From a bacterium (GTDB lineage Bacteria > Electryoneota > Electryoneia > Electryoneales > Electryoneaceae), in the NCBI GenBank assembly GCA_963669175.1, contig OY769902.1, positions 1,184,001 to 1,248,000 on the forward strand: a DNA stretch of 64,000 nucleotides, read 5' to 3'. Position 1 is the first letter of the stretch, and each line of letters opens with the position of its first letter. The notes beneath the pieces were generated by a model. It made no database searches. It saw only the letters and a program-made list of their open reading frames with translations, and was not told the origin of the DNA. This document shows, piece by piece, positions 11,176 to 31,693 of this stretch. The translations under genes and the position numbers were made by a program.

Positions 11176-11217
11176 TTGAAGGGGGGAGTGGGCAAAGTTG
11201 AAAACTGCGGAGAGCCT

Positions 11218-11458: not shown

Positions 11459-11550
11459 AGCTTTCTTTACGTTTTTTACCTTTTTTACTTTCTTTACCTC
11501 TATCACTTACTATTAGGAAATATTTCCGGTAGGTTTTCAGTTGATAGTGG

Positions 11551-12381
11551 TTACTTTTTCTTGTCCTTTTTCGTTGTATCTTTTTGTTTATCTTTAGGTT
11601 TAAGGTCAGGATGATACTGCATCACCAGTTTCTGATATTGGACCACTGTACTACGTCCGAGTCCGGTAGTACGCACAATTTCCATCAGATTAAGTTCTTT
11701 GACCATCAGGAACTTGATGTTTTTGTAAGATCGCAAGTAACGACCCACCGCTTCAAGGGTATGCGTGGTCAAGCGAGCGATATCCGGTTCCGGATAGCCC
11801 TGTTCGTACAGGTCAATGATTGCGGCCTTGTGTGTGGGACGGCTTCCCTGGTCCAACATGATTCCTTTCGTCGGCAGGATGTCATCATGCGTTTCGTGAT
11901 ACTGTTGGATGTACTTGCCAATGGTCGTCAGCGACCGGTTCAACAACACACTCAATTCCGCGCCGCTTAATAACCCGCCTTGTTCGTACGCGCTTTTCAC
12001 CAACCGCGCCAGCACTGCAATATCCCTGTCGCGCTGTTTGCCCGCACCGTCTTTTCCATAGTGGCGACGAATACGATCAACCACATCTTCTTCAGTGACA
12101 AGCGGAAGAATGACGGTCTTCACCTCATAGTCTTCTACCCGTGTCCCATAGCTGGGCTTGTGGCACTGTGCACCTGTCGTACGCCACACAATACTGCCAC
12201 CGCTGCGTTGCTCGATATCCGGATAGAACTCACGGTGCAGTTGCATGATGTCATCCGCCACCATGGCCAAGACCTTGTGGCTGCCAAGAATCTTGTACTG
12301 CTCTTCCAACAACCGGATGATCGCAGTGCGAAAGTTCCGCTTCGGCAGGGATTCATAACGGTTCCGTACCTCAGTTTTCAT
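11551..12381 (-). CDS. DUF1670-like HTH protein B (276 aa)
   Basis: AYEQGGLLSGAELSVLL...PTKG..LDQG..PTHK motif; ATG 12381 with GGAGG RBS, overlapping the stop of protein A. Confidence 0.85.
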   Translation of the reverse strand: MKTEVRNRYESLPKRNFRTAIIRLLEEQYKILGSHKVLAMVADDIMQLHREFYPDIEQRSGGSIVWRTTGAQCHKPSYGTRVEDYEVKTVILPLVTEEDVVDRIRRHYGKDGAGKQRDRDIAVLARLVKSAYEQGGLLSGAELSVLLNRSLTTIGKYIQQYHETHDDILPTKGIMLDQGSRPTHKAAIIDLYEQGYPEPDIARLTTHTLEAVGRYLRSYKNIKFLMVKELNLMEIVRTTGLGRSTVVQYQKLVMQYHPDLKPKDKQKDTTKKDKKK

Positions 12382-13204
12382 GGACGCCTCCGCCACCTTG
12401 TCCCGCTCTTTTTTTTGAGGGATACTGTGCTTGCAACTGCTCCAGAAGTTCGACATAGCTTGTCGGCCAGTGATCACCCTGTTTGTATTTTGCAAACAGA
12501 TCCAGGTACTCACCCGTCAACCGTTCGCTCTGTTGAAGCAGACGGCTCAGGTCGGTCAGCTCGGTAATGTCATGGCTAAGCAGAAGCAACAAGCGTCCAA
12601 ACGTACTCACATAGCGCTTGATCGCAAACGCGCTGTGACGTGTCAGACGGATGATCTCATCATAGGTCCGGCCACCCAGGTACAAATCAACGATCCGTGC
12701 CTTGTGCGATAACCCACGCCCAATGTCATGGTCGTAGCCACGCGTATGCACCGTATTCCCGTCAGCAAGCAGCAACGCAATATCCTTGCGGATGGTCCGA
12801 TCTGAAACGTGCAGCAGACGACTCAGATCCTCCTGTGTCAGCAACCCACCCTGCTGGTACGTCTCTTCGGTTAGCCGAAGAATCCGTTGCTGACGAAGCG
12901 ATGAAGCGCCCAGTTCGCGCAGAACATCCAAGTCCTCAACACCGTCATCCAGTGTCAGTTCGACACGAATCAGGTCTTGTTCGCGTAAGGGACGACCGTG
13001 ACGAGCTTTCTTGGACGCACATAAAAAACGAAGCTTGCCAAGCGTTGACGGCATCGTACCGAACAAACAACGCTTGGCAAGCTCCAATATCCCCGTACTC
13101 GCAGCCGGTGAAAGCTCAAACTCGCGACGAAGCGAGTTCACAAACACCTGCTCCGGCGTCTTCTCCATACACCGGTCATACAGGCTCGTTGAAGTATGTA
13201 ACAT
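12371..13204 (-). CDS. DUF1670-like HTH protein A (277 aa)
   Basis: YQQGGLLTQEDLSRLL.VS.RTI..DI...TRG..HDIG.G.SHK motif; ATG 13204 with GGAGGA RBS. Confidence 0.85.
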   Translation of the reverse strand: MLHTSTSLYDRCMEKTPEQVFVNSLRREFELSPAASTGILELAKRCLFGTMPSTLGKLRFLCASKKARHGRPLREQDLIRVELTLDDGVEDLDVLRELGASSLRQQRILRLTEETYQQGGLLTQEDLSRLLHVSDRTIRKDIALLLADGNTVHTRGYDHDIGRGLSHKARIVDLYLGGRTYDEIIRLTRHSAFAIKRYVSTFGRLLLLLSHDITELTDLSRLLQQSERLTGEYLDLFAKYKQGDHWPTSYVELLEQLQAQYPSKKRAGQGGGGVHEN

Positions 13205-13303
13205 CTTGTCCTCCAGCATGTTACGCGATCGCTTCCGATTGCCAACCCGAATACAAAGGTCGCAAACAAGAAGCAAATCGCCAAACCTACCGGAAGTATT
13301 TCC

Positions 13304-16300
13304 TTATTTCAGGAGTACCATTCTACGGGTCAAGCTGACATTTTCTCCTTCCAATCGTACAAAATATGTCCCCGAGGCGACCGGCATACCCTGATCGTTA
13401 CATCCCTGCCACATGACCTGTTGTTGCCCCGCCTGTACAACGCCATCCACCAGTGTAGCTACTTTCCGTCCCAGTACATCATAGACCGCAAGGCTGATCT
13501 CGCCGGTATGGGGCGCGGAAAAGCGAAGTGTCGTCGCCGGGTTAAACGGGTTGGGATACGCGGAATGCAGTTCCCAGGTTGCTGGAAGTGTGTTCTCTGC
13601 CAGGGACGCAACCCGTTCATAATTGTCATTGTAGCGCATGGCATAGACATTGGCTTGCGTGGGTTCTTCGCCATCACCGCCACGATAGTCCAGCCAAGTC
13701 GCAAGGACACCGCCCTGACCATCGGAAGTGACAGAGGGTTCCTTCTGACGGTAGATCGCATTTGTCAAAACCATCCCATGTTCTACATAATCGGCAAGAG
13801 CAAGGGTGCCGTCAGACAGAATATGGGTGTAATACATGTCCACGTCACCGGGCATATAACTGTAAAAGCAGAATGTGATATACATGCCATTGTCGTCATC
13901 TTCACAGAAGCGTGGCGTGTATACTCCGGAATAGATGGACGTGTCAACCGGTGTGGGAATAACCACGCCTTCATTCGGGAAGAATATTGGCAGTCCGCTA
14001 TCATCAAATTTCTGGAATCGCAGGTTGTTGTCCTCGTCCCTGCCTGTCAGCCAGATCCAGCCATCCGACGTTGATCCCAGGTCCAGGTCAGTCCAGCCAT
14101 AGCTCATCCAGCCGGTATACACGCCATAGGTATCCCACTGACAAATGCCATCCATGTTCACACGTTGCGCCATAAGATCGGCCGGCCCACTTTCCGACCA
14201 GGATTGCAGCCACATGACCACGACGCCATCGTTGACCGCAGCCATACGAGCGCCAGGCATTCTGAGGTCTTCATCATATACGTTTAACGGATTTGGCCAC
14301 AGCGGATTGCCTTCGGTATCCAGGGCAAGGAGATGAAATCCACGGTTTTCCCGTTCGATATCTTCCTGCATGAACAGGATAAAAGTTTCGCCATCGGGCA
14401 TCACCAGGATCTGTTGCAGTTCCATTCCGGCTTGTTCCCGCTCGAAAGAAAAGCCTTCCGTTCCGTTCCAGAGTCGCTGCCCTTCAGTGGTGATGCGTTG
14501 AGCCTGGATTGTTCCGGTATTGTTCATATTCGTGTTGTTGAACACGTATACCACGACGGCATCACCGTTCGGCATCGGAGCAACTTTAACTTGGTCTGCT
14601 TCAAAGGGTTGCTGCAACGGATCAATCAGGACAATATCATCGTTCCAGGCAGCATTGCCGTCTTCATACATGCGCTGAATGTGCAACCTGTTCACAATAT
14701 TCGGATAGGGCTGATTGTAGGTAAATACGGAATAGACACCTCCTATGTGGTCAGGCGCTATTCCCAGCAATTCACCATACCACCCCGATTCGGCTTCCAG
14801 GTCCGGCAGGGACTGAGTCGAAACATGGTTACCGTTGTCCTCCCACAGGTATTCTCCCGTTTCCATATCCAGCCGTTGCAGTAAAGGCCGGAAGAAGGCC
14901 GAAGACAGGTAACGGCTGTCGGTCCAGCCGATAAAAGCATTTTCACCAGACAAAACAATATCAGGCGCGTAGACATCCCCATCGATCCCGGTATGCAGGG
15001 AGTGCAAATCATTGTAAGCAGGTTCGCCAGTCGTGAGATCCAGGGACTGGAACCGAACTCCACAAGCTGCGGGATACTGGTCACGTAACACCAGTTTTAC
15101 GGTTCCATCAGCCACAACAGGCTGATAGGAATCAGTAGTCAGAATATTTCGTCCATTGCCATAATCGGTGTCATCGTTCAACCACATCTCTTCACCGTTG
15201 GCGTTGATACGCTCGAGAAGAATCCGGTCGTCCAGATCAGCATCCACGCGATCCGTATGGATACCCACGACTACGCCTCCGTCACCATCGTACGCCAGGT
15301 GGAAATTAGCCGGGTTGATGAAAATGTCATTGAATAGTGTGATCCCGTTTCTGTCGTTGCCCCAGCATAGTTCGGCAACGCCGTCAGCATCCCTGACTTT
15401 TTGCACGACATTGAGCAGTGTCGGGCCGACCTCATCATGGATACGTGCTAGGAAAAACTCATTTTCTCCGCCCGGGATAAGGTCAAATTCGAAATAATGC
15501 GGGTACATGGAATCAATGGTCTCAGAAACAGGCACACCGCCATATTCCCATACGTTGCTGCCATCCGTATCGATATGTTGAGCGCGTATCTCCAGGTCCG
15601 CCATGTCCTTCCAGACTATGAACATTCCCCCCAGACCATCCAGGGTCATGTAGAAATGATAAGCGTACAGGTTTTCCGGGAATGAATAGACAATGGTTCC
15701 GGGCCACAACTGAACCCCGGTTTCATTCCACTTATGCGCGAAGATGGTTCGAGACTGGAAATCCATAGAGACGCTTAAGATGGAGCCATCGTCATCCAAT
15801 GCGACCTTTGCATTGCCTAGTGCGTTTTCCAAGGCATAGCCACTTGCGCCCCAGGTGTAATTCCCCTGGTTGTCGATGTACTGCACGTATGTCTGACTTG
15901 CGGCTTCCCAGGCGAACATGGCGCCGTCATCATTGGTGCCGGTCATCTGCAGGTCCAATCCGGGCCATTGAGTGGTGTCCTGGGTTACGATCAAGCCGTT
16001 ATCTTCCCACATGGGTTCGCCGTTGCTATTCAAACGCTGAACCACAAAATCCCATCGTCCCTGCTTGTGGACATCCCGCCGGAAATCACGCCAGCCAATC
16101 AACCAGTCACCGTTAGCGCATGCCTGGACAACGGGGTCTTGCTGGGCGGCGTGGAGGGTGGTAACCGCGATGCCATCTGCGTCCCATTGCGCTTCATCGC
16201 TGCTGTTGTATAGCTGCACAAATACGTTCTGGGATCCACCGCTGGCATCCGACCATGCTACCAGCCAGTATCCATCACCGTCAGCCGCTACGCCATGATG

Positions 16301-16441
16301 ATTCCACATGACATGATCGCCCTGACGCACAGCCACTCCATTCTCAGGTTCCCAGATGTTGAAACGTGCAAAAGCGAGCGAAGTAAAGACCGCGGGCAGC
16401 AGTAGTGAAAAAAGGATGACAATATGTAACCGTGAACGCAT
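13304..16441 (-). CDS. Secreted beta-propeller-like repeat protein with C-terminal sorting domain (array paralog 6)
   Basis: Signal peptide; repeated W.D.R...QR....G...W motifs; YPNPFNP...MVLLK; stop codon supplied by the element. Confidence 0.85.
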   Translation of the reverse strand: MRSRLHIVILFSLLLPAVFTSLAFARFNIWEPENGVAVRQGDHVMWNHHGVAADGDGYWLVAWSDASGGSQNVFVQLYNSSDEAQWDADGIAVTTLHAAQQDPVVQACANGDWLIGWRDFRRDVHKQGRWDFVVQRLNSNGEPMWEDNGLIVTQDTTQWPGLDLQMTGTNDDGAMFAWEAASQTYVQYIDNQGNYTWGASGYALENALGNAKVALDDDGSILSVSMDFQSRTIFAHKWNETGVQLWPGTIVYSFPENLYAYHFYMTLDGLGGMFIVWKDMADLEIRAQHIDTDGSNVWEYGGVPVSETIDSMYPHYFEFDLIPGGENEFFLARIHDEVGPTLLNVVQKVRDADGVAELCWGNDRNGITLFNDIFINPANFHLAYDGDGGVVVGIHTDRVDADLDDRILLERINANGEEMWLNDDTDYGNGRNILTTDSYQPVVADGTVKLVLRDQYPAACGVRFQSLDLTTGEPAYNDLHSLHTGIDGDVYAPDIVLSGENAFIGWTDSRYLSSAFFRPLLQRLDMETGEYLWEDNGNHVSTQSLPDLEAESGWYGELLGIAPDHIGGVYSVFTYNQPYPNIVNRLHIQRMYEDGNAAWNDDIVLIDPLQQPFEADQVKVAPMPNGDAVVVYVFNNTNMNNTGTIQAQRITTEGQRLWNGTEGFSFEREQAGMELQQILVMPDGETFILFMQEDIERENRGFHLLALDTEGNPLWPNPLNVYDEDLRMPGARMAAVNDGVVVMWLQSWSESGPADLMAQRVNMDGICQWDTYGVYTGWMSYGWTDLDLGSTSDGWIWLTGRDEDNNLRFQKFDDSGLPIFFPNEGVVIPTPVDTSIYSGVYTPRFCEDDDNGMYITFCFYSYMPGDVDMYYTHILSDGTLALADYVEHGMVLTNAIYRQKEPSVTSDGQGGVLATWLDYRGGDGEEPTQANVYAMRYNDNYERVASLAENTLPATWELHSAYPNPFNPATTLRFSAPHTGEISLAVYDVLGRKVATLVDGVVQAGQQQVMWQGCNDQGMPVASGTYFVRLEGENVSLTRRMVLLK

Positions 16442-16636
16442 CTTCCGTGCCTCCTGTCTGGGTAACCAAGATACTGTTGTTTTGTTCGCTAGTGGACCAT
16501 ATCAGGTGCAATGGTCCACTAGTATTGCCTCGTTCTGTCATCCCCATGCAACAGGTTGTAATGCAGCGGGCTGTTGCGCAATAAGTTTAAAGGCAACAGG
16601 TTGTAACAGAATAGGCAATACGCTTATCCCAACGTT

Positions 16637-16855
16637 GCAGACTGTATCAGAATAGAAAATATTCTCATCCCAGCGAAGCAGACTGTATCAGAATAGAAAA
16701 TATTCTCATCCCAGCGAAGGCTGGGATCCAGGCAAGTATCTACAAAATAACAATTTGGACACTTGAACGGCTCTCAATATACCGCGTTTCTTGACAACAC
16801 TTAACCTCTTGTAATATCGCAACATGACTGGATCCCAGCCTTCGCTGGGATGAGA
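16637..16855. repeat. 41-bp tandem duplication plus inverted REP doublet
   Basis: 16637-16677 equals 16678-16718; TCTCATCCCAGCGAAGGCTGGGATCCAG (16704-16731) is inverted at 16828-16855. Confidence 0.85.
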
Positions 16856-16913
16856 GCATCAGTGATTCTGAGACACCTTGATAGATTGGGATTCAGACAT
16901 ATAACTATCACCT

Positions 16914-16960
16914 GTTTCGTCAGGTCTTGCGCACATGATTTTCGTGCGTGTGACCTGACG
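16914..16960. repeat. Solo hairpin related to the internal unit of MITE A
   Basis: GTTTCGTCAGGTCTTG...TGTGACCTGACG. Confidence 0.6.
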
Positions 16961-17192
16961 CGATCAGCAAGTCAATTTCAAGCTGACGCAAGTCCGTGTG
17001 TCGTGTAAAGAACACAAAAACAATTTTTTACAACAGAATATCCGGCTCTTGACAAACAAACGCACGCGCTGCTCTCGGCTGGTACCGGAAACAGCGCGTG
17101 TCGGGTGTTGACTATGTACAGCAGTCGATTGGCAGCCTGTCTTCCACGCGTTTCCCCCCTTTGGGAAGCAGACCAACGCAACAACTGTCAAA

Positions 17193-20100
17193 TCACTTCA
17201 ATAATACAATTTTTTCTGTCAGATGTACACTGTTCCCGCTCAGTTTTACGAAGTAGGTTCCGGACGCTACCGGCATGCCTTTATCGCTGTGTCCCTGCCA
17301 GATCACCTGCTGCCGTCCCGCCTGAACCACACCATCGACAAGCGTCGCAACTTTACGTCCCAGCACATCATAGACTGCCAGGGTCACTTCGGACGTGCGT
17401 GGCGCGGTGAAACTCAGCGTGGTTGACGGGTTGAACGGGTTCGGATAGGCGCCATGCAGTTCCCAGGAAACCGGGTGCAGGTTTTCCGCGTTCCCATCCA
17501 CATGGAAAGGATCATTTGTGATTCGCATGGCGTAAATGTCATCCACCGGATCGTCTACCGGTTGTCCACGGAAGTCTGTCCAGGATGCCAGCACACCTCC
17601 CTCACCGTCCGATGTGACTGCCAGTTCACATTGCGTGAAGTGCATTTCGCTAAGGTAAGCGTCGCCCTGCTCGAAAATCTCCCCGGTAAAATTGCCGTGG
17701 GCGTCCATATGGCTGTATCCCAGATCCGGATCTGAACAGACGTGGTGATTGTGAACCGTGTACAAGATGTAAATTCCATTTTGACCATCGGTTACTATCT
17801 TGGAGTCGCTAAAGCTGATAACGCTTTCTTGTGTCTGCCCGGGAAGAACGATACCGCCTTCCGGTTCAAGTGAGGGTTCTCCTTCACTATCGAAAAGTTG
17901 ACAGAAAATGACATTCCTGTTGTATTCTTCCGGATAATCATACCAGGTCAGCCAGAAAGAATCGTCATCATTCAGCACGACTTCCGCCTCTTCCAGCCAG
18001 ACTTTGGCTTCCCTGATATCCATGATGATTCTGCCGGAGATTTCCCATTGTGCTTCTCCATCCATGCTGACAGATTGTCCCAGCAATTGCGTGTTGTCGT
18101 TGAGATGTGTCCAAAGCACCAGGATATCATTACTTCGCGGGATTACATGGGAAGCGATACACGTACGCATGTTGCCATTCACTATCTGCGATTCCCAAGC
18201 AGGTACACCGTTTGAATCAAGCAGTGTCATGTACACATCTTCCCCCAACGTATACATGATGACAAGCTCGCCATTTTCCAGAACAGTCATGCTGCGCAGG
18301 ATGCAATTCTGTCCGGAAGCGGTAACGCCCGCATCTCCCCAGAGCAAATTTCCGGAATCGTCCACACAATTGCAGGTGATTGCGCCGGAGTATGACTCCC
18401 ACACCATGTAGTAATGGCCGTTGGGACCGGTTTGGAAAAGCTGGTATGGGTTTGATGTTCCATCAGGAAGCGCGTACTCGTCTGGAGTGATTAAAATCGA
18501 GTTTTCCCAAACCCGTTCAAGGTTGGCGTTATAACGGTCAAGGTTCAGGGTCCGCCCCATTCCATTCACCATGGAAGACAACAGGACCATTCCCCCTTCA
18601 TTATCCGGAACGGGATAAACTCGATCCAGATCGACCGCCCCTCTGGCCGGGTCACCCGGCTCCAGTAAAACGCCATTCTGTTCAAGGAGCGGTTCCCCAG
18701 TATCAAAATCCAGCCGTTGTGCATACAGGTCATGATAATCTCGATAGTCATGCCACAGGATAAATACATTGTTATTTGAGCAGACGATTTTAGATTCTTT
18801 TCCGTCGCCAATCATTCCGGTAACCAGGGGAAACGGCTCTTCAAACAACTCATTGCCGTTTTCAGCATCGAATGCACTGAATTGAACACAAGCGAAATTA
18901 TTTCCTTCTGTGTAGATATCTGGCCAGAAAACCCGAACCTGGTCATCTTGGATGAAAGAAGCAAACGACAACCAACAGGGTAAGCCGTCGATTTCAATCT
19001 TACCGGGAACACCATCATTCCAGGCGTAATCACCATTTTCATCAAAACGCATCACGAAGATTTCAGAACCCCTGCCTTTTCCGGCAGCATCGGAAGTGGT
19101 CAGGATAAACCCGCCTTCATCGTCATGACTCAGCCTGATACAACGATAGGTCAGGGTTTCATCAGGGAAAAGGACAGTGCCCTGTACCTCTTCCGGATCC
19201 GGATTTTCGTTGCTGACAGCATCGAAAAAACGCATGCGCAGTTCACGAATCGTAGAATCGCCCATGACACTCCAGGCAAGGATACAAGTGCCGTCATGGT
19301 GGTGCATGATCCGGTACATGTCGTCGTTGTATATGTAATTGCAATGGCCGGTCAGGTTCACCGGTTCATCCCACAACAGAGCCCCATCAACGGAAACATA
19401 TTGACCGTAAATGCATCTGCGATCGTAGTCCAGCCAGGTAACAAAGACGTTTTCCTGGTGATCGGTTATTATTCTGATATCGTTGGAGTATTCATCCAAA
19501 TCTATAGGCGCTCCCTCATTCCAGACGGGATTTCCTGATGAATCAAAATGTTGCAGGGAAACAGCAGTCCCGAAAGCAACGGTAAATGATCCGTCTTCCA
19601 ACACGGCAGGGTGAATAAACCTGCAACTATCCTGTAATACGATTCCACCTTCTTCCCAGAGAGGATTGCCGTTGCTGTCCAGCTTTTGCACAAGCCCAGT
19701 ATGGTCATCTTTCCAGAACACCAGGGTTGTATGATCCGGGAGAGGATTCAAGGAACACAGTACAGATTCCACTTCCGGTTCCTGACTCAGCAAAACCCCA
19801 TTATCGGTCCATTGCAACTGACCATTCGATGAAATCTTCTGGATGGCAAAATCAGCTCTACTATCATGGGGATAGCCGCGATAATCCTCCCATGCGACCA
19901 GCCAGTTGCCATCACCGGCGTATACGACGAGCGGTTGCTGCTGGGGTGTGGGTAGGTTGGTAATCTGCAAGCCACCCGCTTCCCACTGCTCCTGGTTGTT
20001 CGAGTCGTATAATTGAACATAGATGTTCTGAGCGCCGCTTTTTCCATCCGACCATGCCGCGCACCAGTATTCCTCGCCGTCATTGGCAACACCATCGCCT

Positions 20101-20243
20101 ATCCATGTGAAATGGTTGGCTTGACGGACCATCACACCTTCTTCCGGTTCCCAGTATTGTTGCTGAGCATGTGCGGAAAGGAAAGGGAGGAGAAGAGCAC
20201 AACAGACACAAAAGCCGGCAGTTCGCCTGACCAGATCACTCAT
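17193..20243 (-). CDS. Secreted repeat protein with C-terminal sorting domain (paralog 5)
   Basis: Same architecture; start at AAGGAGTCGGAC-ATG; ends IVLLK. Confidence 0.85.
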   Translation of the reverse strand: MSDLVRRTAGFCVCCALLLPFLSAHAQQQYWEPEEGVMVRQANHFTWIGDGVANDGEEYWCAAWSDGKSGAQNIYVQLYDSNNQEQWEAGGLQITNLPTPQQQPLVVYAGDGNWLVAWEDYRGYPHDSRADFAIQKISSNGQLQWTDNGVLLSQEPEVESVLCSLNPLPDHTTLVFWKDDHTGLVQKLDSNGNPLWEEGGIVLQDSCRFIHPAVLEDGSFTVAFGTAVSLQHFDSSGNPVWNEGAPIDLDEYSNDIRIITDHQENVFVTWLDYDRRCIYGQYVSVDGALLWDEPVNLTGHCNYIYNDDMYRIMHHHDGTCILAWSVMGDSTIRELRMRFFDAVSNENPDPEEVQGTVLFPDETLTYRCIRLSHDDEGGFILTTSDAAGKGRGSEIFVMRFDENGDYAWNDGVPGKIEIDGLPCWLSFASFIQDDQVRVFWPDIYTEGNNFACVQFSAFDAENGNELFEEPFPLVTGMIGDGKESKIVCSNNNVFILWHDYRDYHDLYAQRLDFDTGEPLLEQNGVLLEPGDPARGAVDLDRVYPVPDNEGGMVLLSSMVNGMGRTLNLDRYNANLERVWENSILITPDEYALPDGTSNPYQLFQTGPNGHYYMVWESYSGAITCNCVDDSGNLLWGDAGVTASGQNCILRSMTVLENGELVIMYTLGEDVYMTLLDSNGVPAWESQIVNGNMRTCIASHVIPRSNDILVLWTHLNDNTQLLGQSVSMDGEAQWEISGRIIMDIREAKVWLEEAEVVLNDDDSFWLTWYDYPEEYNRNVIFCQLFDSEGEPSLEPEGGIVLPGQTQESVISFSDSKIVTDGQNGIYILYTVHNHHVCSDPDLGYSHMDAHGNFTGEIFEQGDAYLSEMHFTQCELAVTSDGEGGVLASWTDFRGQPVDDPVDDIYAMRITNDPFHVDGNAENLHPVSWELHGAYPNPFNPSTTLSFTAPRTSEVTLAVYDVLGRKVATLVDGVVQAGRQQVIWQGHSDKGMPVASGTYFVKLSGNSVHLTEKIVLLK

Positions 20244-20308
20244 GTCCGACTCCTTCGGTTGAAAATCATTAAAGTGACTGATGAAAACAATCAATACGTT
20301 GTGAATCG

Positions 20309-20345
20309 CCCGACCTTCCCCGCCATAACAGGAGGGAAGGTCGGG
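20309..20345. terminator. Intergenic stem-loop
   Basis: CCCGACCTTCCC/GGGAAGGTCGGG 12-bp stem. Confidence 0.55.
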
Positions 20346-20410
20346 TAACAATTGTCTGACATCTATTTACTATTAGGAAATATTTCCGGTAGGTTTTCAG
20401 TTGATAGTGG

Positions 20411-21241
20411 TTACTTTTTCTTGTCCTTTTTCGTTGTATCTTTTTGTTTATCTTTAGGTTTAAGGTCAGGATGATACTGCATCACCAGTTTCTGATATTG
20501 GACCACTGTACTACGTCCGAGTCCGGTAGTACGCACAATTTCCATCAGATTAAGTTCTTTGACCATCAGGAACTTGATGTTTTTGTAAGATCGCAAGTAA
20601 CGACCCACCGCTTCAAGGGTATGCGTGGTCAAGCGAGCGATATCCGGTTCCGGATAGCCCTGTTCGTACAGGTCAATGATTGCGGCCTTGTGTGTGGGAC
20701 GGCTCCCCTGGTCCAACATGATTCCTTTCGTCGGCAGGATGTCATCATGCGTTTCGTGATACTGTTGGATGTACTTGCCAATGGTCGTCAGCGACCGGTT
20801 CAACAACACACTCAATTCCGCGCCGCTTAATAACCCGCCTTGTTCGTACGCGCTTTTCACCAACCGCGCCAGCACTGCAATATCCCTGTCGCGCTGTTTG
20901 CACGCACCGTCTTTTCCATAGTGGCGACGAATACGATCAACCACATCTTCTTCTGTGACAAGCGGAAGAATGACGGTCTTCACCTCATAGTCTTCTACCC
21001 GTGTCCCATAGCTGGGCTTGTGGCACTGTGCACCTGTCGTACGCCACACAATACTGCCACCGCTGCGTTGCTCGATATCCGGATAGAACTCACGGTGCAG
21101 TTGCATGATGTCATCCGCCACCATGGCCAAGACCTTGTGGCTGCCAAGAATCTTGTACTGCTCTTCCAACAACCGGATGATCGCAGTGCGAAAGTTCCGC
21201 TTCGGCAGGGATTCATAACGGTTCCGTACCTCAGTTTTCAT
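20411..21241 (-). CDS. DUF1670-like HTH protein B, copy 2
   Basis: Identical to copy 1 except one Gly/Cys change. Confidence 0.85.
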   Translation of the reverse strand: MKTEVRNRYESLPKRNFRTAIIRLLEEQYKILGSHKVLAMVADDIMQLHREFYPDIEQRSGGSIVWRTTGAQCHKPSYGTRVEDYEVKTVILPLVTEEDVVDRIRRHYGKDGACKQRDRDIAVLARLVKSAYEQGGLLSGAELSVLLNRSLTTIGKYIQQYHETHDDILPTKGIMLDQGSRPTHKAAIIDLYEQGYPEPDIARLTTHTLEAVGRYLRSYKNIKFLMVKELNLMEIVRTTGLGRSTVVQYQKLVMQYHPDLKPKDKQKDTTKKDKKK

Positions 21242-22064
21242 GGACGCCTCCGCCACCTTGTCCCGCTCTTTTTTTTGAGGGATACTGTGCTTGCAACTGC
21301 TCCAGAAGTTCGACATAGCTTGTCGGCCAGTGATCACCCTGTTTGTATTTTGCAAACAGATCCAGGTACTCACCCGTCAACCGTTCGCTCTGTTGAAGCA
21401 GACGGCTCAGGTCGGTCAGCTCGGTAATGTCATGGCTAAGCAGAAGCAACAAGCGTCCAAACGTACTCACATAGCGCTTGATCGCAAACGCGCTGTGACG
21501 TGTCAGACGGATGATCTCATCATAGGTCCGGCCACCCAGGTACAAATCAACGATCCGTGCCTTGTGCGATAACCCACGCCCAATGTCATGGTCGTAGCCA
21601 CGCGTATGCACCGTATTCCCGTCAGCAAGCAGCAACGCAATATCCTTGCGGATGGTCCGATCTGAAACGTGCAGCAGACGACTCAGATCCTCCTGTGTCA
21701 GCAACCCACCCTGCTGGTACGTCTCTTCGGTTAGCCGAAGAATCCGTTGCTGACGAAGCGATGAAGCGCCCAGTTCGCGCAGAACATCCAAGTCCTCAAC
21801 ACCGTCATCCAGTGTCAGTTCGACACGAATCAGGTCTTGTTCGCGTAAGGGACGACCGTGACGAGCTTTCTTGGACGCACATAAAAAACGAAGCTTGCCA
21901 AGCGTTGACGGCATCGTACCGAACAAACAACGCTTGGCAAGCTCCAATATCCCCGTACTCGCAGCCGGTGAAAGCTCAAACTCGCGACGAAGCGAGTTCA
22001 CAAACACCTGCTCCGGCGTCTTCTCCATACACCGGTCATACAGGCTCGTTGAAGTATGTAACAT
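21231..22064 (-). CDS. DUF1670-like HTH protein A, copy 2
   Basis: Protein identical to copy 1. Confidence 0.85.
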   Translation of the reverse strand: MLHTSTSLYDRCMEKTPEQVFVNSLRREFELSPAASTGILELAKRCLFGTMPSTLGKLRFLCASKKARHGRPLREQDLIRVELTLDDGVEDLDVLRELGASSLRQQRILRLTEETYQQGGLLTQEDLSRLLHVSDRTIRKDIALLLADGNTVHTRGYDHDIGRGLSHKARIVDLYLGGRTYDEIIRLTRHSAFAIKRYVSTFGRLLLLLSHDITELTDLSRLLQQSERLTGEYLDLFAKYKQGDHWPTSYVELLEQLQAQYPSKKRAGQGGGGVHEN

Positions 22065-22163
22065 CTTGTCCTCCAGCATGTTACGCGATCGCTTCCGATT
22101 GCCAACCCGAATACAAAGGTCGCAAACAAGAAGCAAATCGCCAAACCTACCGGAAGTATTTCC

Positions 22164-25100
22164 TTATTTCAACAATACCATCTTGCTGGTCAGGTTGACA
22201 CCATCGCTTTCAAGGCGTACAAAATAAGTTCCCGACGCTACCGGCATCCCCTGGTCGCTGTGCCCCTGCCAGATCACCTGCTGCCGTCCCGCCTGAACCA
22301 CACCATCGACAAGCGTCGCAACCTTACGTCCCAGTACATCATAGACCGACAGGGTCACTTCGGACGTGCGTGGCGCGGTGAAACTCAATGTGGTTGACGG
22401 GTTGAACGGGTTGGGATAGGCGCCATGCAGTTCCCAGGAAACCGGGTGCAGGTTTTCACGGGGTTCGTTGGCGCCGTATGGGTATTCATAGATGCGCATG
22501 GCATAAACATCATCCCCCTCATCTTCGATATTCATGCCACGGTAGTCGGTCCAGGAAACCAGCGCGCCTCCTTCGCCATCCGGAATCGCAAAAAGCTCTT
22601 CCTGTACGAACATCGCATCGGTCAGGATCAGGCCGCCCTCCTCGTAGTACGGGTCGAAAAGATCACCGTCCGCATTGATATGCGAGAAGCCAAGATTGCT
22701 GTAATCACAATCTGAAAGAATCTGGTAAAACACAAAGAAACCGTTGTTCCCATCCGGCACAGTATAAAGTGTATTGTATTCCTTGACAACATCGTTGTAC
22801 GCTGTTGGCAGTAAAATCCCATGCTCCACATCGTACAGCGGTTCTCCCTGGGCGTTGAATTTCTGATAACGCGGGCTTCTGTATCGTTCCTCATCCTGTC
22901 GGTCCAGCCAGGCAATCCAGAAAGTGTTATCCTCATTGATCACAACGGTTTCATCAATAAAAACGGGTAAAGCATTCATACAGGAAATGATTTCACGGCC
23001 ATTGGTGTCCCAGAGAATAGAGCCGTCGGCAGCATCAACCAACTGGCCGTAAAGGCACATGCGGTCTTCCGTGAGCCACAATACAAGAATATCGTCACCC
23101 AGTTGACGAACGACAGGCGCATAGGATCGTGGCATCATCCCGTCAGTTACCTGCGCACGTGGAGTTTCCCAGATCGCTTCGCCTTCCTCGTCCAGGAGGG
23201 TCAGGTAAACCAGATCCCTGTTCTGGAAAAGAACACCATAATTGTTGTTGTCCAGCAGCACAGCGCCCTTCAGAACGTAACTTTCCGCGGTCAGACTGCT
23301 TCCATCCTCGCCCCACAGCAGCTCACCAGTCTGGCTGATACGGTTGCAGGCGACAACACCGTTCCCACGACGCACCCAGGAGACATAGTAACAGCCATTT
23401 GAGCCGCGAAGGAACTGATATTTGTTTTGGGTTTTTGAACGGAAGAACGTCTGCTCGCTGGTTGTCAGGCAGGTAGGGGAGTCCCAGACCGGTTCCAGCT
23501 CGCTGTCGTAGGTCTGGATAAATACTTCATAGGGGTCGCCATAACCTCCATCTCGACGCAGGGTAAGCAGTGCGAAGCCACCATCCTCCGTGCCAAGCGC
23601 CTGGAAATTATTCATTCCCCAGGCCACTCCTTCATAGGAAATAGCCAACGGTACGCCATGATCCTCAAACAGGGTTTCGCCAGTCTGGATGTCAAGTTTC
23701 TGGAAATACACATCAGACGAGTCTCGAAAATCTACCCACCCGATCAGGACATCATCCTGGGATTTTAGAACCTGGGAGAGCCTTCCGTTGTTCATAATAC
23801 CGCTAACCAGGGGATAGGGCTGTTCAAAAACCGATTCCCCGGAAGCCAACTCGAGCTGTTGGAATTGAACACCAATCCCATCACCGGAAGAATACACTCC
23901 CGGCCAGAAAAGGCGCACATAGTCGTCAAGTTCGAAAAGATCAAAAGCGTATGGGCAGGGAAGACCATCAATTTCAAACTGTACCGGGCTGCCATCGTTC
24001 CAGAGGCTGACGCCCTGATCACTGAAACGCATGGCCAGGATTGCGCTACCTGAATACTTGCCGTAGGAATTCGAAGTGGCGAGTATGAAACCATCTTCGC
24101 CATCCGGGAAAAGCCTCACACAGTAAAACACCATGTTTTCGTCGGGGAAAACTCTGAACTGGCAGATATCATCCTGCTCTTCCTGGTCTGAAGAGTAATC
24201 AAACAGTCTCATCTGGAGGTTATAGCCATCATCGTTTGCCTGTGGCCATGCCAGGGCGCAGACCCCGTCATGGAGATGGCATAACCGGAAGAAATCATCA
24301 TTGGAAATGTAGTTGCACGGTGCAGAGAGCTGGACACATTCTTCCCACAACGGTTCACCTTCAGCACTGATATATTGCCCGAAAATACCATCGCGCTCTT
24401 CACAGAGCCAGACCAGGCAATACCCGTTCTGGTCATCCTTTACCAGCTCCATATCCGTTGAATTCATCTCCTCTTCAGGGCAAAGCGCGATGGGTTGGCC
24501 GTCGTTCCATTGTGCTTCACCATTCCCATCATACAATTGGATCTCAACAGGTGTGCCCGTTGCGATCATAAAAGTACCATCATCATTCACGATAGCATTG
24601 ATGGCTTCTCTGTATTCTGTCACAGCTAACGGCTCATCCCAACACGGATTGCCGTCATGGTCAAACTTTTCGATATAGTTTCCCGTAACAGACTCCCAGA
24701 CAACGAGAGTAGCTTGATCCGGCATCGGTAGAAACGTATTTAAAAACGTCCAGGACACACCATCCGGGTTCAGCAAAACTCCGTTTTCCTGCCACAAAGC
24801 TTCGCCTTCTGATGACAATCGTTGAAGCGCGAAATTGATCAATGATGCATTCCCATTATTCCGGTACTCCTCCCATGCCACCAGCCATTCACCATCACCG
24901 GCATAACGGATCATGGGTTGTTGCTGTGGGGTGGGCAAATCGGTGAGTTGTATACCGCCTTCCGTCCACTGCTGCTCGTTGGCGGAGTTGTATAGCTGGA
25001 CATACACATTTTGAGCGCCCTCTTTTCCGTCCGACCAGGCAGCCAGCCAGGAGCCGGAATCGTCTGTGGCAGCTCCGCCGCCTGTCCAGGTAAAATGGTT

Positions 25101-25226
25101 GCCCTGACGGACCATAACACCATCTTCGGGCGCCCAGGCTTTGAACTGGGCATTGGCCGCAAAACAAACCAGGAGCAATGTCAACACAACGAGGGAGCAA
25201 ACTGTACGCTTTTTCAAGTAAACCAT
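22164..25226 (-). CDS. Secreted repeat protein with C-terminal sorting domain (paralog 4)
   Basis: Same architecture; ends MVLLK with the stop supplied by the element. Confidence 0.85.
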   Translation of the reverse strand: MVYLKKRTVCSLVVLTLLLVCFAANAQFKAWAPEDGVMVRQGNHFTWTGGGAATDDSGSWLAAWSDGKEGAQNVYVQLYNSANEQQWTEGGIQLTDLPTPQQQPMIRYAGDGEWLVAWEEYRNNGNASLINFALQRLSSEGEALWQENGVLLNPDGVSWTFLNTFLPMPDQATLVVWESVTGNYIEKFDHDGNPCWDEPLAVTEYREAINAIVNDDGTFMIATGTPVEIQLYDGNGEAQWNDGQPIALCPEEEMNSTDMELVKDDQNGYCLVWLCEERDGIFGQYISAEGEPLWEECVQLSAPCNYISNDDFFRLCHLHDGVCALAWPQANDDGYNLQMRLFDYSSDQEEQDDICQFRVFPDENMVFYCVRLFPDGEDGFILATSNSYGKYSGSAILAMRFSDQGVSLWNDGSPVQFEIDGLPCPYAFDLFELDDYVRLFWPGVYSSGDGIGVQFQQLELASGESVFEQPYPLVSGIMNNGRLSQVLKSQDDVLIGWVDFRDSSDVYFQKLDIQTGETLFEDHGVPLAISYEGVAWGMNNFQALGTEDGGFALLTLRRDGGYGDPYEVFIQTYDSELEPVWDSPTCLTTSEQTFFRSKTQNKYQFLRGSNGCYYVSWVRRGNGVVACNRISQTGELLWGEDGSSLTAESYVLKGAVLLDNNNYGVLFQNRDLVYLTLLDEEGEAIWETPRAQVTDGMMPRSYAPVVRQLGDDILVLWLTEDRMCLYGQLVDAADGSILWDTNGREIISCMNALPVFIDETVVINEDNTFWIAWLDRQDEERYRSPRYQKFNAQGEPLYDVEHGILLPTAYNDVVKEYNTLYTVPDGNNGFFVFYQILSDCDYSNLGFSHINADGDLFDPYYEEGGLILTDAMFVQEELFAIPDGEGGALVSWTDYRGMNIEDEGDDVYAMRIYEYPYGANEPRENLHPVSWELHGAYPNPFNPSTTLSFTAPRTSEVTLSVYDVLGRKVATLVDGVVQAGRQQVIWQGHSDQGMPVASGTYFVRLESDGVNLTSKMVLLK

Positions 25227-25352: not shown

Positions 25353-28300
25353 TTATTTCAGCAATACCATCTTGCTGGTCAGGTTGACACCATCGCCTTC
25401 CAGACGCACAAAATAAGTTCCCGACGCTACCGGCATGCCCTGATCGCTGTGCCCCTGCCAGATTACCTGCTGCCGTCCCGCCTGCACCATACCATCCACC
25501 AAGGTGGCTACTTTCCGGCCCAAGACGTCGTAAACCGAAAGCGTTACTTCGCTGCTGTGTGGGGTGGTGAAACTCAGCGTGGTTGAGGGATTGAACGGGT
25601 TGGGATAGGCGTTGTGCAGTTCCCAGGAAACCGGGTGCAGGTTTTCACGCTTGTCGTGAACGCCAAAGGGATTGTCATTGACACGCATGACGTAAATATC
25701 ATCGACAGGATCATCTACCGGTTGTCCACGGTAGTCTGTCCATGAGGCCAAAACGCCGCCAAATCCATCTGGAATAATGGAAATATCTTCCTGTCCGAAT
25801 TGGGCATCGACCAGATAAGCGGTACCGTTCTCAAATTCACTCTGCGTGAAGTTTCCATCGGCGTCGATATGGGTATAGCCAATGTCATCCCCGTAGTCAT
25901 TGTTCACTTCGTAGAATATGTACATACCATCCTGGTCATCTGTTACGGCACGGTATTCCCTGAAAGAGTTAATCTCAGCTTCGTTTTGCCCCGGCAAAAT
26001 AATACTGTTTTCCTGGTTAAGAAGTGGTTGTCCTTCACTGGAGAATAACTGGCATTGAACGGCATAGGCATTGTCCAGCTCCAAACGATCACGCCATGTA
26101 AGCCAGAAGGAATCATCACTGTTAAGCACCAGATTTTTGCACGCAGAGTAAGCAGAACTTGACTCTTTATCAATCAATACTCTGCCGTCCTCTTCCCATT
26201 GTACCTCACCGTTGAGGTTGACGGATTGGCCCATGAGTTGGGTATTGTCAGCGGCATTAACCCAGGTCAGGAGAATGTCGTCATTTCGGGGGTAGATTGC
26301 CGGTCCCCTGAAGTAGGCCACATCAAAGTCGAAGATTTCAACATTCCAGACAATCTCACCCTCACTGTTAAGACGCGCCAGGTATGAATCGTTCTGGTAG
26401 TTATACCATACAACAAAATTGCCATCGTCCAGGATTGCAGTTGCCGCAGGCTCGCTGTGCTGTCCTGCCAATGCGACACCTGTATCACCCCAGAGAAGGT
26501 TTCCGGATGCATCCACACAGTTACATACAACATGGTTGAGCAGCTCTTCCCATGCTATAAAGCAGTTCCCGTCCTGATCGTATCTGACCATGCTTTTCTG
26601 GAAATCTGTTTCGTCGTAATAAGAGAACATTCCACGTTCTGTAAATTTCACACTTTGGTCCCAAACGGGGTCAAGGTTGGCGCTAAAGCGGTCCAGGCTG
26701 AAAGTCCAATTGTAGTTGTTATCAACAGACGAATGAAGCATCGTAAGTCCGCCTTCATTGTTCGGTATGAAGATTGTCCGCTCATAACTTTGAAATTGAT
26801 CCACATAACACCGGCAAGGAAGCCGCTTCCCATCTTGTTGAAACGCTTGTTCACCATTTTCAGCATCAAGTTTCTGCACATAAATGTCCAGCGAATCACG
26901 ACAGTCTTTCCAGAGGACAAAAATATTGTCCCCGGAACGAATGATCCGTGATTCCCTGCCGTTTCCGAGCATACCGGTAGCAAGTGGAAAAGGTTCTTCG
27001 AAGACAGCGTTACCGTTATGCAGTTCATACTGCAGGAACTGAACGGCGGCCTCATCACCAACCCCGGGATCATGGTCCGGCCAGAAAACACGGACTGTAT
27101 TCTCCTGGATAAATGTCGAAAAGGTCAGTGTACAGGGTAGTCCATCCATGGGGATTCGAAGTGGCTCACCATCATTCCAGAGATAGTCACCGTTCTCGTC
27201 GAAGCGCATTGCATGTATTTCAGACCCCGTTCCCTTTCCATGAGCATCAGAACTGGTGATAATGAAACCGTCCTCATTGTCCGGACAAAGTTTTACGCCG
27301 CAATACTCGAGAGATTCTTCCGGGAACAGGACGGTTCCCTGAAGTTCGCCAGGATTGCCGTTTTCAGTCGATGAGTCGAAAAGACGCATTCGCAAGCTAT
27401 AGTTGCCGTCTTGGTCGGTAGCTCCCCAGGCCAGAACACAGTTGTCATCATTGAGATGCATGGCACTGTAATTACCTTCATCAAAGACACGATGGAATAA
27501 CCCGGTCAGGTTGACCGGTTCATCCCAAAGAGGTGTCCCTTCTGCGGAGACATGTTGAGCACTAATGGACTGGCAGTGACTATTGACCCACGTAAGGAAA
27601 TAGTTCCCTTGGTCATCCATGATCAACCGGACATCGGAAGATGTACTATCCAGGGATACGGGTTCGCCCTCATTCCAAACCGGATTACCGGAAGCATCAT
27701 AATGTTGCATTGAGACCAGTCCATCGAAGGCAACCGTAAAGGAGCCGTCATCAAATACGACCACGTCAATATGATGCCAATTATCCTCAAGTAGACGGCC
27801 GCCTTCTTCCCAGACCGGGTTTCCATTGCTGTCGAATTTCTGAACCAGGTCCCCCTGATGGGAGCGCCAGAAAACCAGGGTTGACTGGTCTGGAAGGGAA
27901 TAAAACTTCTCCAGTGAAGTCCATTCTCCGGCTTCCTCTATAAGGACACCGTTGCTTGTCCACAGAATCGTACCATCCGATGAGATTTTTTGGATCGCTA
28001 TGCCTTGTTCGCCACCGGAGGGAATGCCACGATAATCTTCCCAGGCAACCAGCCAATTTCCGTAGCCGGCATAGGCTACGAGCGGTTGCTGCTGGGGGAC
28101 AGAGAGGTCAGTGATCTGAAGACCACCGGTTGCCCATTGTTCATGGTTGTTGGAATCGTACAATTGCACAATGATGTTTTGAGCGCCGCTTTTCCCGTCT
28201 GACCATGCGGCGCACCAGTATTCTTCGCCATCACAAGCGACACCGTCACCGGTCCAGGTGAAATGATTCGCCTGACGGACCATAACACCATCTTCCGGTT

Positions 28301-28394
28301 CCCAGAGGTTGTACTGGGCATGTGCTGGATGGATAACAAGACAGAGAAAGCCAATAGAAAGGATGCAGGCAATGCGTCGAAGAAGGTTTCCCAT
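25353..28394 (-). CDS. Secreted repeat protein with C-terminal sorting domain (paralog 3)
   Basis: Same architecture; AAGGAG RBS before ATG 28394; ends MVLLK. Confidence 0.85.
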   Translation of the reverse strand: MGNLLRRIACILSIGFLCLVIHPAHAQYNLWEPEDGVMVRQANHFTWTGDGVACDGEEYWCAAWSDGKSGAQNIIVQLYDSNNHEQWATGGLQITDLSVPQQQPLVAYAGYGNWLVAWEDYRGIPSGGEQGIAIQKISSDGTILWTSNGVLIEEAGEWTSLEKFYSLPDQSTLVFWRSHQGDLVQKFDSNGNPVWEEGGRLLEDNWHHIDVVVFDDGSFTVAFDGLVSMQHYDASGNPVWNEGEPVSLDSTSSDVRLIMDDQGNYFLTWVNSHCQSISAQHVSAEGTPLWDEPVNLTGLFHRVFDEGNYSAMHLNDDNCVLAWGATDQDGNYSLRMRLFDSSTENGNPGELQGTVLFPEESLEYCGVKLCPDNEDGFIITSSDAHGKGTGSEIHAMRFDENGDYLWNDGEPLRIPMDGLPCTLTFSTFIQENTVRVFWPDHDPGVGDEAAVQFLQYELHNGNAVFEEPFPLATGMLGNGRESRIIRSGDNIFVLWKDCRDSLDIYVQKLDAENGEQAFQQDGKRLPCRCYVDQFQSYERTIFIPNNEGGLTMLHSSVDNNYNWTFSLDRFSANLDPVWDQSVKFTERGMFSYYDETDFQKSMVRYDQDGNCFIAWEELLNHVVCNCVDASGNLLWGDTGVALAGQHSEPAATAILDDGNFVVWYNYQNDSYLARLNSEGEIVWNVEIFDFDVAYFRGPAIYPRNDDILLTWVNAADNTQLMGQSVNLNGEVQWEEDGRVLIDKESSSAYSACKNLVLNSDDSFWLTWRDRLELDNAYAVQCQLFSSEGQPLLNQENSIILPGQNEAEINSFREYRAVTDDQDGMYIFYEVNNDYGDDIGYTHIDADGNFTQSEFENGTAYLVDAQFGQEDISIIPDGFGGVLASWTDYRGQPVDDPVDDIYVMRVNDNPFGVHDKRENLHPVSWELHNAYPNPFNPSTTLSFTTPHSSEVTLSVYDVLGRKVATLVDGMVQAGRQQVIWQGHSDQGMPVASGTYFVRLEGDGVNLTSKMVLLK

Positions 28395-28455
28395 GTCCGA
28401 CTCCTTTGTATACATTTTGTCGTGCTCCAGACAATCACTATCGCTTCGTAACATA

Positions 28456-28489
28456 CAGGCTTGCCCCGTGCTTTGGCGAGGCAAGCCTG
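28456..28489. terminator. Intergenic stem-loop
   Basis: CAGGCTTGCC/GGCAAGCCTG stem. Confidence 0.5.
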
Positions 28490-28507
28490 AAAAAGTCAAA
28501 CTAACAT

Positions 28508-31594: not shown

Positions 31595-31665
31595 AACAGA
31601 CTCCTTCCGTATACAAACCGGTTCTCTTCGTTGCAGATTATGATGTTTTTTTATTGGGATATGTC

Positions 31666-31693
31666 GGTATGCCCTGCAAAAGCAGGGCATACC
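31666..31693. terminator. Intergenic stem-loop
   Basis: GGTATGCCCTGC-AAAA-GCAGGGCATACC perfect 12-bp stem. Confidence 0.55.

Follow-up and report, generated by a model that had tools for sequence, protein, structure and literature searches.

The transposon Tn7 has a single insertion site per genome, downstream of glmS, where it makes a 5-bp duplication, and it requires TnsABC together with TnsD. Tn7 with TnsD is the closest functional analogue of the element described here, as both use a conserved coding 3' end as the signal, insert in one orientation, and leave the gene product unharmed. Two copies of this element are present in a 64,000-nt stretch of DNA (hereafter the window) from an Electryoneaceae bacterium (Electryoneota; GCA_963669175.1, contig OY769902.1, forward strand 1,184,001-1,248,000). 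In contrast to Tn7, the element lies inside the last codon of its host gene and repairs this codon, has hundreds of potential sites, generates a 2-bp duplication, and carries two DUF1670 genes. It most likely represents an undescribed, highly site-specific insertion sequence (IS) family, and we assign a probability of roughly 0.6 to the reading that it is an autonomous site- and orientation-specific IS with these two DUF1670 genes as its only genes. Judged from titles and the starts of abstracts, nothing was found in the literature on DUF1670 or on insertion at sorting-domain ends; an ISfinder entry is possible.

Other described elements share some features with this one. IS630/Tc1-mariner elements resemble it in the 2-bp duplication, the terminal or subterminal inverted repeats, and the matches to the helix-turn-helix (HTH) families HTH_23, HTH_28 and HTH_29, but the element has neither DDE_3 (Pfam, E <= 0.1) nor a match to NF033545, and it duplicates AA, AG or CG in a target motif of ~20 bp, rather than TA in NTAN. 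The serine-recombinase transposons (Tn4451, Tn5397) and IS607 are similar with regard to the junction dinucleotide, the orientation specificity, and a target that resembles the joined ends; in contrast to them, the element lacks a resolvase catalytic domain, its dinucleotide varies with the target, and inverted repeats are present. Integrative elements that target the 3' ends of tRNA genes rely on tyrosine or serine integrases and on identity over tens of bases. They likewise replace the sequence that they displace and leave the host product unchanged, whereas here the replacement comprises only one base and a stop codon, and the target genes form a protein-coding family. IS110/IS1111 elements encode a DEDD transposase, are guided by an RNA that a long non-coding region provides, and make no duplication. 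Like these, the element is highly site-specific, with subterminal repeats and repeated genomic targets, but it has non-coding parts of ~105 nt and ~45 nt, no NCBIfam hit or Rfam match, and a 2-bp duplication. Finally, it differs from IS200/IS605 in having no hit to the HUH Y1 transposase and in possessing inverted repeats and a duplication.

Insertion within the last sense codon of sorting-domain genes

Both window copies and their host genes lie on the minus strand (coordinates are given for the forward strand of the window), and the element is 1,799 bp long. Copy 1 (11509..13307) starts with ATAAGG and ends with CCTAATAGT, and the identity between the copies stops at these bases; copy 2 (20369..22167) has all of its parts at the coordinates of copy 1 plus 8,860. 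The copies differ at 3 of 1,800 positions, while the last 300 nt of their host genes are only 72-85% identical. Host gene 1 (13304..16441, 1,045 aa, ending ...RRMVLLK) and host gene 2 (22164..25226, 1,020 aa, ending ...SKMVLLK) both match Por_Secre_tail and TIGR04183. A sequence-only reading of the window had proposed that each copy is inserted in the last Lys codon of such a sorting-domain gene and rebuilds Lys and stop. The junctions were as it described them: with a slash marking the borders of the element, the minus strand reads ATG GTA CTC CTG AA/ATAAGGAAAT...TTTCCTAATAGT/AA G TGA at copy 1 and ATG GTA TTG TTG AA/ATAAGG...TAATAGT/AA A TAG at copy 2. The left AA of copy 1 (13308..13309) forms bases 1-2 of the host's last Lys codon, and the right AA (11507..11508) is followed by the displaced third base G and the original stop TGA (11503..11506). 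At copy 2, the left AA (22168..22169) and the right AA (20367..20368) are arranged in the same way, and the displaced third base A and stop TAG (20363..20366) are followed by ATGTCAG.

Removal of the element plus one AA restored CTG AAG TGA (Leu-Lys-stop) at copy 1 and, at copy 2, an A TAG ATGTCAG flank that matches the A TAG ATGTTAG of an unoccupied paralog (28508..31690). The ends of this paralog (CTG AAA TAG ATGTTAG) and of another unoccupied one (17193..20351, TTG AAG TGA) had been quoted correctly. The first four bases of the element, ATAA (13304..13307 at copy 1), supply the third base of Lys and a new TAA stop, and the left junctions accordingly read CTG AA/A TAA GG and TTG AA/A TAA GG.

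We searched the whole 5.45-Mb single contig, of which the window is a part, with the element DNA and found the element in full 7 times, together with a complete relative of 67% identity and a fragment of 154 nt. The 7 near-identical copies differ by 0-5 substitutions per 1,800 nt and are located in different host genes, and the frames of ORF1 and ORF2, the two open reading frames (ORFs) of the element, are open in all 8 complete copies. Every one of the 8 is inserted after base 2 of the last Lys codon of a type A sorting-domain gene of the type IX secretion system (T9SS), co-oriented with this gene and with a 2-bp duplication; the tabulation of genomic copies that had been suggested as a check therefore bore out the proposed target. 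The left flank reads ..NTN AA/ATAAGG in all 8 copies, and the right end reads ..TAATAGT in 7 copies and ..GAAACGT in the diverged one, followed by AA and then by G TGA (two copies), G TAG (two) or A TAG (four). Beyond these bases, the right flanks of the genomic copies are unrelated to one another. All 8 host C-termini scored above the TIGR04183 cut-off (29.6-54 bits vs 23).

With a hidden Markov model (HMM) built from these 8 host C-termini and iterated over the C-terminal 110 aa of 16,199 stop-to-stop ORFs, each of at least 90 aa, we counted 337 sorting domains in this genome, 335 of them at the very end of the ORF. The target family is as large as had been supposed: 257 of these ends are Lys and 64 are Arg. 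A random insertion would hit such a position in the observed orientation with a probability of ~3e-5. As all complete copies share one codon position among 335 gene ends, the 8 of 8 hits cannot be chance.

The same pattern was observed in other genomes. An alignment of 22 ORF2 relatives led to 29 loci in species-representative genomes, the hosts of which are labelled as metagenome-assembled genomes (MAGs) of Ignavibacteriaceae, Melioribacteraceae, Bacteroidota/Cytophagia, KSB1, Neomarinimicrobiota, Caldithrix, Lentisphaeria and Fibrobacteres, or as unclassified. At 25 of the 29 loci (two-sided sites), both junctions could be read and the left flank was 30 nt or longer. Dinucleotides matched on both sides at all 25 (22 AA, 2 AG, 1 CG), and a purine plus a stop codon followed the right dinucleotide at 24 (TAA 14, TAG 9, TGA 1). 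Together with the copies of this genome, the dinucleotides matched at 33 of 33 two-sided sites, and the position to the single base and the orientation were identical at 32, which upholds the site- and orientation-specific insertion of the sequence-only reading (8/8 genomic copies and 24/25 foreign sites). Upstream ORFs of at least 40 aa all matched TIGR04183 (23/23, E <= 1e-3), and at locus L044, where only 17 aa precede the contig end, the protein ends in KKMLLVK. Right junctions read AA G TAG at L049 (the only junction of that locus) and TAATAGT AA A TAG at L047, and L045, with 2 nt of left flank only, was consistent with the pattern, as were three right ends and two left ends at contig-end junctions in the genomes G001, G010 and G043. 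In L071, a 45% relative, the element ends were not found.

The sites with a dinucleotide other than AA were informative about the duplicated unit. The junctions read GTA AG/../AG A TAA at L060, ATG CG/../CG A TAG at L069, and TTG AG/../AG G TAG at L070, such that the dinucleotide changes with the target codon (Arg AGA, CGA and AGG, respectively). The repeated dinucleotide is therefore target DNA, and as it differs from one target to the next, it has the appearance of a genuine target-site duplication and not of a fixed recombination core. Of the 2-bp core proposed earlier, the 2-bp unit thus stands, and a 2-bp crossover is less likely than a duplication. At the AG and CG sites the A of the element completes AGA or CGA, which still encode Arg; ATAA hence turns AA, AG or CG into Lys or Arg plus TAA and leaves the host protein intact, as had been claimed. 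A far relative on a metagenome contig (L098) has different repeats (GGACATTTGTCC) and has kept ATAA on the left, TAATAGT on the right, and CG/../CG G TGA around them.

Taken together, these comparisons showed that the element moves as a unit of ~1.8 kb, and that its landing point lies after base 2 of the last sense codon, which is Lys (AAR) or Arg (AGR/CGN). They also showed that the host protein is left unchanged, as the 5' ATAA completes the codon synonymously and adds a TAA stop, and that the original third base, the stop codon and the downstream DNA are displaced by 1.8 kb.

An empty site was found in the same-genus genome G001 at the site of the copy L003, where a syntenic gene without the element (~70% DNA identity) ends ..ATG CTG GTG AGG TAG, compared to the restored GTC AAG TAG; the sense codon is followed directly by TAG, as the 2-bp model predicts. 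At the sites of L001 and L005, G001 has the downstream gene only, with no sorting-domain gene nearby; its matches for L004 are not syntenic, L007 has no match, and at the L008 site element ends at contig ends are present instead of an empty site. In Logan contigs of 3 runs from one study, no clean empty-site bridge was found over 10800-14000; the element forms its own 1,803-nt contig in these assemblies, and the loose ends are flanks of other copies. The two outcomes that had been named as incompatible with the proposal, namely copies at unrelated sites and empty alleles reading AAATAATAGTAA, were both looked for, and neither search overturned it.

In a logo of 31 sites (L065 left out), the information fell on positions that follow the codon structure: AA at -16/-15, T at -12, -9, -6 and -3, Y at -7, AA at -1/0, R at +1, and T-A-R at +2 to +4, which is DNA encoding K-x-h-h-h-K-stop. 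A 21-nt weight matrix was derived from 23 foreign sites only and used to scan both strands of this genome. At >=20 bits it returned 63 hits, 61 of which were sorting-domain gene ends, and at >=16 bits 126 of 167 hits were such ends; 6 of the 8 own sites scored 14-26 bits. Because a matrix of foreign sites picks out sorting-domain ends in this genome, recognition at the DNA level would be sufficient for the specificity. Insertion strictly in the direction of the host gene is in keeping with an asymmetric target, and it may allow read-through expression of the element from the host promoter, as the element genes lie downstream of it. A review of the T9SS states, in its account of the C-terminal domain, that the last two beta-strands of this domain coincide with 22 residues essential for secretion. 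Since these essential residues make up the last two strands, a changed or extended C-terminus would probably block secretion.

The DUF1670 proteins and the ends of the element

Three generic features of an IS are present in the element, namely near-identical copies at different loci, inverted repeats, and a duplication derived from the target. Each copy starts with ATAA followed by the left repeat GGAAATACTTCCGGTAGGTTT (13283..13303 in copy 1, 4 nt from the element end) and finishes with the right repeat in inverted form, AAACCTACCGGAAATATTTCC (11516..11536, 7 nt from the element end), followed by TAATAGT; in copy 2 the repeats are at 22143-22163 and 20376-20396. The repeats are 21 bp long and complementary at 20 of 21 positions. 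A 12-bp near-palindrome, the halves of which co-vary among relatives, lies inside the left repeat, and ATAA precedes the left repeat in every left end found.

ORF1 (12374..13204, stop 12371-12373, 277 aa) and ORF2 (11554..12381, stop 11551-11553, 276 aa) are both on the minus strand in copy 1, and correspond to 21234-22064 and 20414-21241 in copy 2. The start codon of ORF1 was chosen by homology with 15 relatives; the start of ORF2 overlaps the end of ORF1 and has GGAGG 6 nt 5' of its ATG. Both proteins match Pfam PF07900 (DUF1670), ORF1 with 155 bits (E 2.3e-45) and ORF2, over the full length of the domain, with 166 bits (E 1.4e-48), relative to a gathering cut-off of 25. Apart from DUF1670, Pfam returned only HTH sub-hits (HTH_23, HTH_28 and HTH_29, and weakly HTH_7). 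Among the NCBIfam models, which include the named IS transposase families, neither protein had a transposase hit, and a weak match to an IS21 HTH (E 0.05) was the only such entry. ORF1 and ORF2 are full-length paralogs of one another (hhalign probability 99.95% over 239 columns, 23% identity).

An A8 run lies near the end of ORF1 (12409..12416 in copy 1 and 21269-21276 in copy 2), and a run of A8-A9 was present there in 21 of 21 loci analysed (among L043-L070). The frame of ORF2 is offset by +1 in 10 loci, by +2 in 9, and by 0, giving a fused frame, in 2; in 5 loci a stop codon lies between the run and the ORF2 start. The run could be a slippage site, transcriptional or translational, that makes an ORF1-ORF2 fusion, or a mutable homopolymer.

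In a collection of 5.8 billion proteins, ORF2 has at least 1,040 relatives, none of which is named beyond 'DUF1670' or 'hypothetical'. Longer relatives consist of two or three fused DUF1670 units with no other domain, and ORF1 and ORF2 are fused in frame in two family members; because of these two observations, ORF1 and ORF2 probably act together and would need no other domain in cis. The DUF1670 family comprises 754 representative clusters (E <= 1e-3), and those in the Atlas are mostly from Chloroflexota, Bacteroidota, Planctomycetota and Methanobacteriota. DUF1670 was found in 3 of 79 genomes of the phylum, most of which are fragmented MAGs in which repeats are often missing. In G001, for instance, ends of the element lie at the borders of contigs, while DUF1670 itself was not matched. 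The control genome, Methanosarcina acetivorans, was positive.

A structural model of ORF2 from 22 close sequences was poor (predicted local distance difference test score, pLDDT, 65.9), and one from 86 diverse relatives reached a pLDDT of 88.7 and a predicted template modelling score (pTM) of 0.73. In this second model, residues 1-110 form an N-terminal domain with three helices and a beta-hairpin; it is followed by a winged helix (113-179), the conserved loop LPxRGxxxDxGxxxTHK, and two more three-helix HTH domains (181-230 and 232-256). The only polar positions conserved in at least 90% of the 86 relatives are R126, D177, H184, K185, H207, Y215 and Y249, which argues against a DDE or DEDD site; no HUH, serine or tyrosine recombinase signature was found. 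The resolvase catalytic domain PF00239 is absent (Pfam, E <= 0.1), and a Tn3 resolvase was matched in the fold search via its HTH only. There was likewise no Pfam hit to a tyrosine recombinase; R126, H184, K185, H207 and Y215 are conserved, but within HTH domains and in a different order from the R-K-H-R-H/W-Y residues of those enzymes. We considered H207...RY215 as a tyrosine-recombinase site and rejected it, as it corresponds to the turn plus recognition helix of a canonical HTH.

A PDB sequence search matched only 8vd6, a 'CAP repeat'; this code occurs in a protein-design paper (PMC12339374), and on the strength of that occurrence we took it to be a designed protein. An Atlas search with the N-terminal part of ORF2 gave no usable hit. 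The predicted ORF1-ORF2 complex scored 0.31 (mark 0.32), which speaks neither for nor against binding. A search for an RNA guide in Rfam gave no meaningful match in the element, and a plasmid collection contained no match to it.

In the mechanism that we propose, the pair of DUF1670 proteins, each with an N-terminal alpha/beta domain and three HTH or winged-HTH domains, and probably as a hetero-oligomer, would bind the subterminal repeats, read the target as DNA (AAR-NTN-NTN-YTN-NTN-AAR-TAR, encoding K-h-h-h-h-K-stop), cut it with a 2-nt stagger, and join the ends of the element to it; repair after joining would make the 2-bp duplication, and the element may be transcribed by read-through from the host gene. 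We tentatively extend this, at somewhat less than even odds, to the proposal that DUF1670 is a new class of transposase or integrase, built of HTH arrays and without a DDE, DEDD, HUH, serine or tyrosine recombinase fold. D177, H184, K185, H207 and Y215 would then be candidate active-site residues, and the paralog pair would read a coding motif of 15-20 bp as DNA and integrate in codon phase to the single base.

Alternative explanations

Several observations weigh against an autonomous, site-specific IS. With regard to targeting, L065 is not at a gene end, the only such case among the 25 foreign sites, and the dinucleotides disagree at the one-sided site L066 (left flank of 5 nt), with CG to the left and AG to the right. 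A left end in G001 (L077) lies off-target, ~100 nt after a tRNA-Leu gene, and the 154-nt remnant in this genome (L009) follows an ORF that does not resemble a sorting domain. Two of the 8 own sites score poorly under the weight matrix, and as these two are at 6.7 and 1.0 bits and L065 is at -13.7 bits, the matrix does not fully capture the recognition code. Only one orthologous empty site was found, at ~70% DNA identity, and no empty-site read or circle junction was seen. With regard to catalysis, Pfam and NCBIfam returned DUF1670 and HTH matches only and no known catalytic domain; Foldseek against the PDB with the ORF2 model gave nothing at E <= 1e-3; and a Foldseek-independent VIA wide search gave best matches of Z 5-6.3, to HTH domains only, so that the N-terminal domain was left unmatched. 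A DDE site is unlikely, given the single conserved acidic residue.

This last group of results is also what favors a different division of labor, in which DUF1670 only binds DNA, like TnsD or a directionality factor, and an unlinked host or mobile enzyme cuts and joins: no catalytic fold was recognised, and the ORF2 model is made up of HTH domains and one small domain that lacks conserved acidic residues. We regard this as doubtful, as a unit of two genes and ~1.8 kb alone has been kept in Ignavibacteria, Bacteroidota, KSB1, Marinimicrobia, Calditrichota-like hosts, Lentisphaeria and unclassified MAGs, and a common trans-acting partner would therefore be required across all of these hosts. The one other multi-copy IS checked in this genome (further candidates were not searched for) has unrelated ends and a TA/CTAG target. 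It is an IS630-family element of 1,165 bp with CTAG ends, split into two ORFs and present in 5 identical copies (C1:3627765-3628681 and four other places), and it is unlikely to act as a helper because its termini are unrelated to those of the element. Conservative site-specific recombination between an excised circle and the target, with a 2-bp crossover as in large-serine-recombinase transposons and DUF1670 as a new recombinase, seemed distinctly unlikely. A 2-bp staggered crossover would leave a 2-bp repeat, the orientation specificity is strict, and the ATAA of the element resembles the R-T-R-R of the target just right of the crossover. The AA common to the 8 own copies and to all 7 copies in the genome OY843751 would also be expected, if the dinucleotide of the circle must match that of the target. 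However, AA is the commonest target anyway (257/335 ends), so that genomes with AA only are weak evidence, and the matched AG and CG sites would need AG or CG donors. Moreover, neither a resolvase catalytic domain nor a conserved Ser is present, and no circle junction was seen.

The remaining explanations dispense either with the 2-bp unit or with targeting. TAA flanks both repeats in the window copies, which is what a 3-bp TAA duplication next to the repeats would produce if the native genes ended in AAA TAA. This alternative, which the sequence-only reading had named, is excluded by the AG and CG sites: the diverged own copy has GAAACGT after the right repeat, L060 and L070 (AG) and L069 (CG) lack TAA at the required right position, and both the orthologue and the paralog place the stop directly after the last sense codon. 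Random insertion with survival of the harmless events, or spread by duplication or gene conversion among paralogs, could explain why the two window copies sit in a tandem array of paralogs, but can be given next to no weight. The position to the single base and the orientation are the same at 32 of 33 two-sided sites from many genomes, right flanks are mutually unrelated, the elements are at least 99.7% identical compared to 72-85% for the host genes, and intergenic DNA, which would be equally harmless, is almost never used.

Relics, neighboring features and significance

Traces of former insertions were found at several gene ends. Two sorting-domain genes (at C1:800516-800655, the C1:800634 remnant, and at C1:~2946988) end in AAA TAA followed by the left-end bases ATAAGGAAATACTTCCGG; these solo left ends match the element at 18 of 18 and 16 of 17 bases and continue into unrelated DNA. 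They show that elements disappear by deletion, whereas the stop that they supplied stays with the host gene, and they suggest that the regenerated AA/A TAA site might be reused. Among 63 gene ends of the form NNA-TAA, 17 continue with GG, and several other AAA TAA GG.. ends may be older relics. At L051 (3936-3960) the flank after the right duplication starts with ATAAGGAAGATC, which equals 12 bases of a related left end and suggests a second insertion into a regenerated site, followed by loss. The right flanks of L064 and L048 start with ATAAGGAAGA and ATAAGG, respectively. The 154-nt fragment (C1:2071034-2071187) is a 78%-identical left-end remnant after an ORF ending ..QQLAMNK, with AAG TAA GG, and the G001 left end at L077:1318-1560 (G001:C93) reads ..AAGGTAATGTGGTCGAA/ATAAGG, 3' of a tRNA-Leu(CAA), with partial resemblance to the consensus. 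In contigs of two runs from one sample, a joint from 11488 to 13290 skips 1,801 nt (the element plus one duplicate) and is shifted by ~19 nt from the element ends. Its break follows ..ACTTCCGG, which is also where the C1:800634 remnant breaks off; one side of the joint is only 22 nt long, and the assembled genome does not contain the joined form.

The two window copies belong to a tandem array of five paralogous sorting-domain genes of ~1,020-1,060 aa (13304-31690, minus strand), two of which are occupied; the third unoccupied member (25353..28499) ends CTG AAA TAA. In the spacer between two of the paralogs (16597-16892), a 41-nt unit occurs three times in tandem, and an inverted repeat of 71 nt (75% complementary) is also present. 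Short repeats of the GTAAAGAAAG type lie directly 3' of sorting-domain stops, at 11460-11500 of the window and at G001:C5:35470-35550 (L040). A 1,335-aa ORF on the plus strand (7168-11175) contains 4-5 tandem units of a 297-nt repeat (9862-11157). Near the insertion site of L001 (1051-1129; C1:~4365137-4365215) is a sequence of ~70 nt that is matched dozens of times in two other genera of the family (44 times in G001 and 47 times in G003), in some cases at 96-100% identity, and that could represent a small dispersed repeat.

The element spares its host in an unusual manner: instead of keeping away from genes, it is directed to the few best-conserved codons of a family of hundreds of genes, and it brings along the four bases that restore the end of the reading frame. 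In every lineage with a T9SS, this target offers neutral landing sites by the hundred in each genome, and probably also free transcription from well-expressed genes for secreted proteins. As the solo ends show, sorting-domain genes owe some of their stop codons and 3' flanks to such elements. Mobility would provide a function for the widespread DUF1670, which the NCBI annotation pipeline does not name as a transposase, and such elements are therefore currently missed in genome annotation. If two small proteins suffice for integration, the pair would be a compact, sequence-reading integrase. If DUF1670 is indeed a new transposase class, its wider superfamily (754 clusters, including Chloroflexota, Planctomycetota and Methanosarcina) would be a large unrecognised IS superfamily, in which other 'repair-what-you-break' targets may occur.

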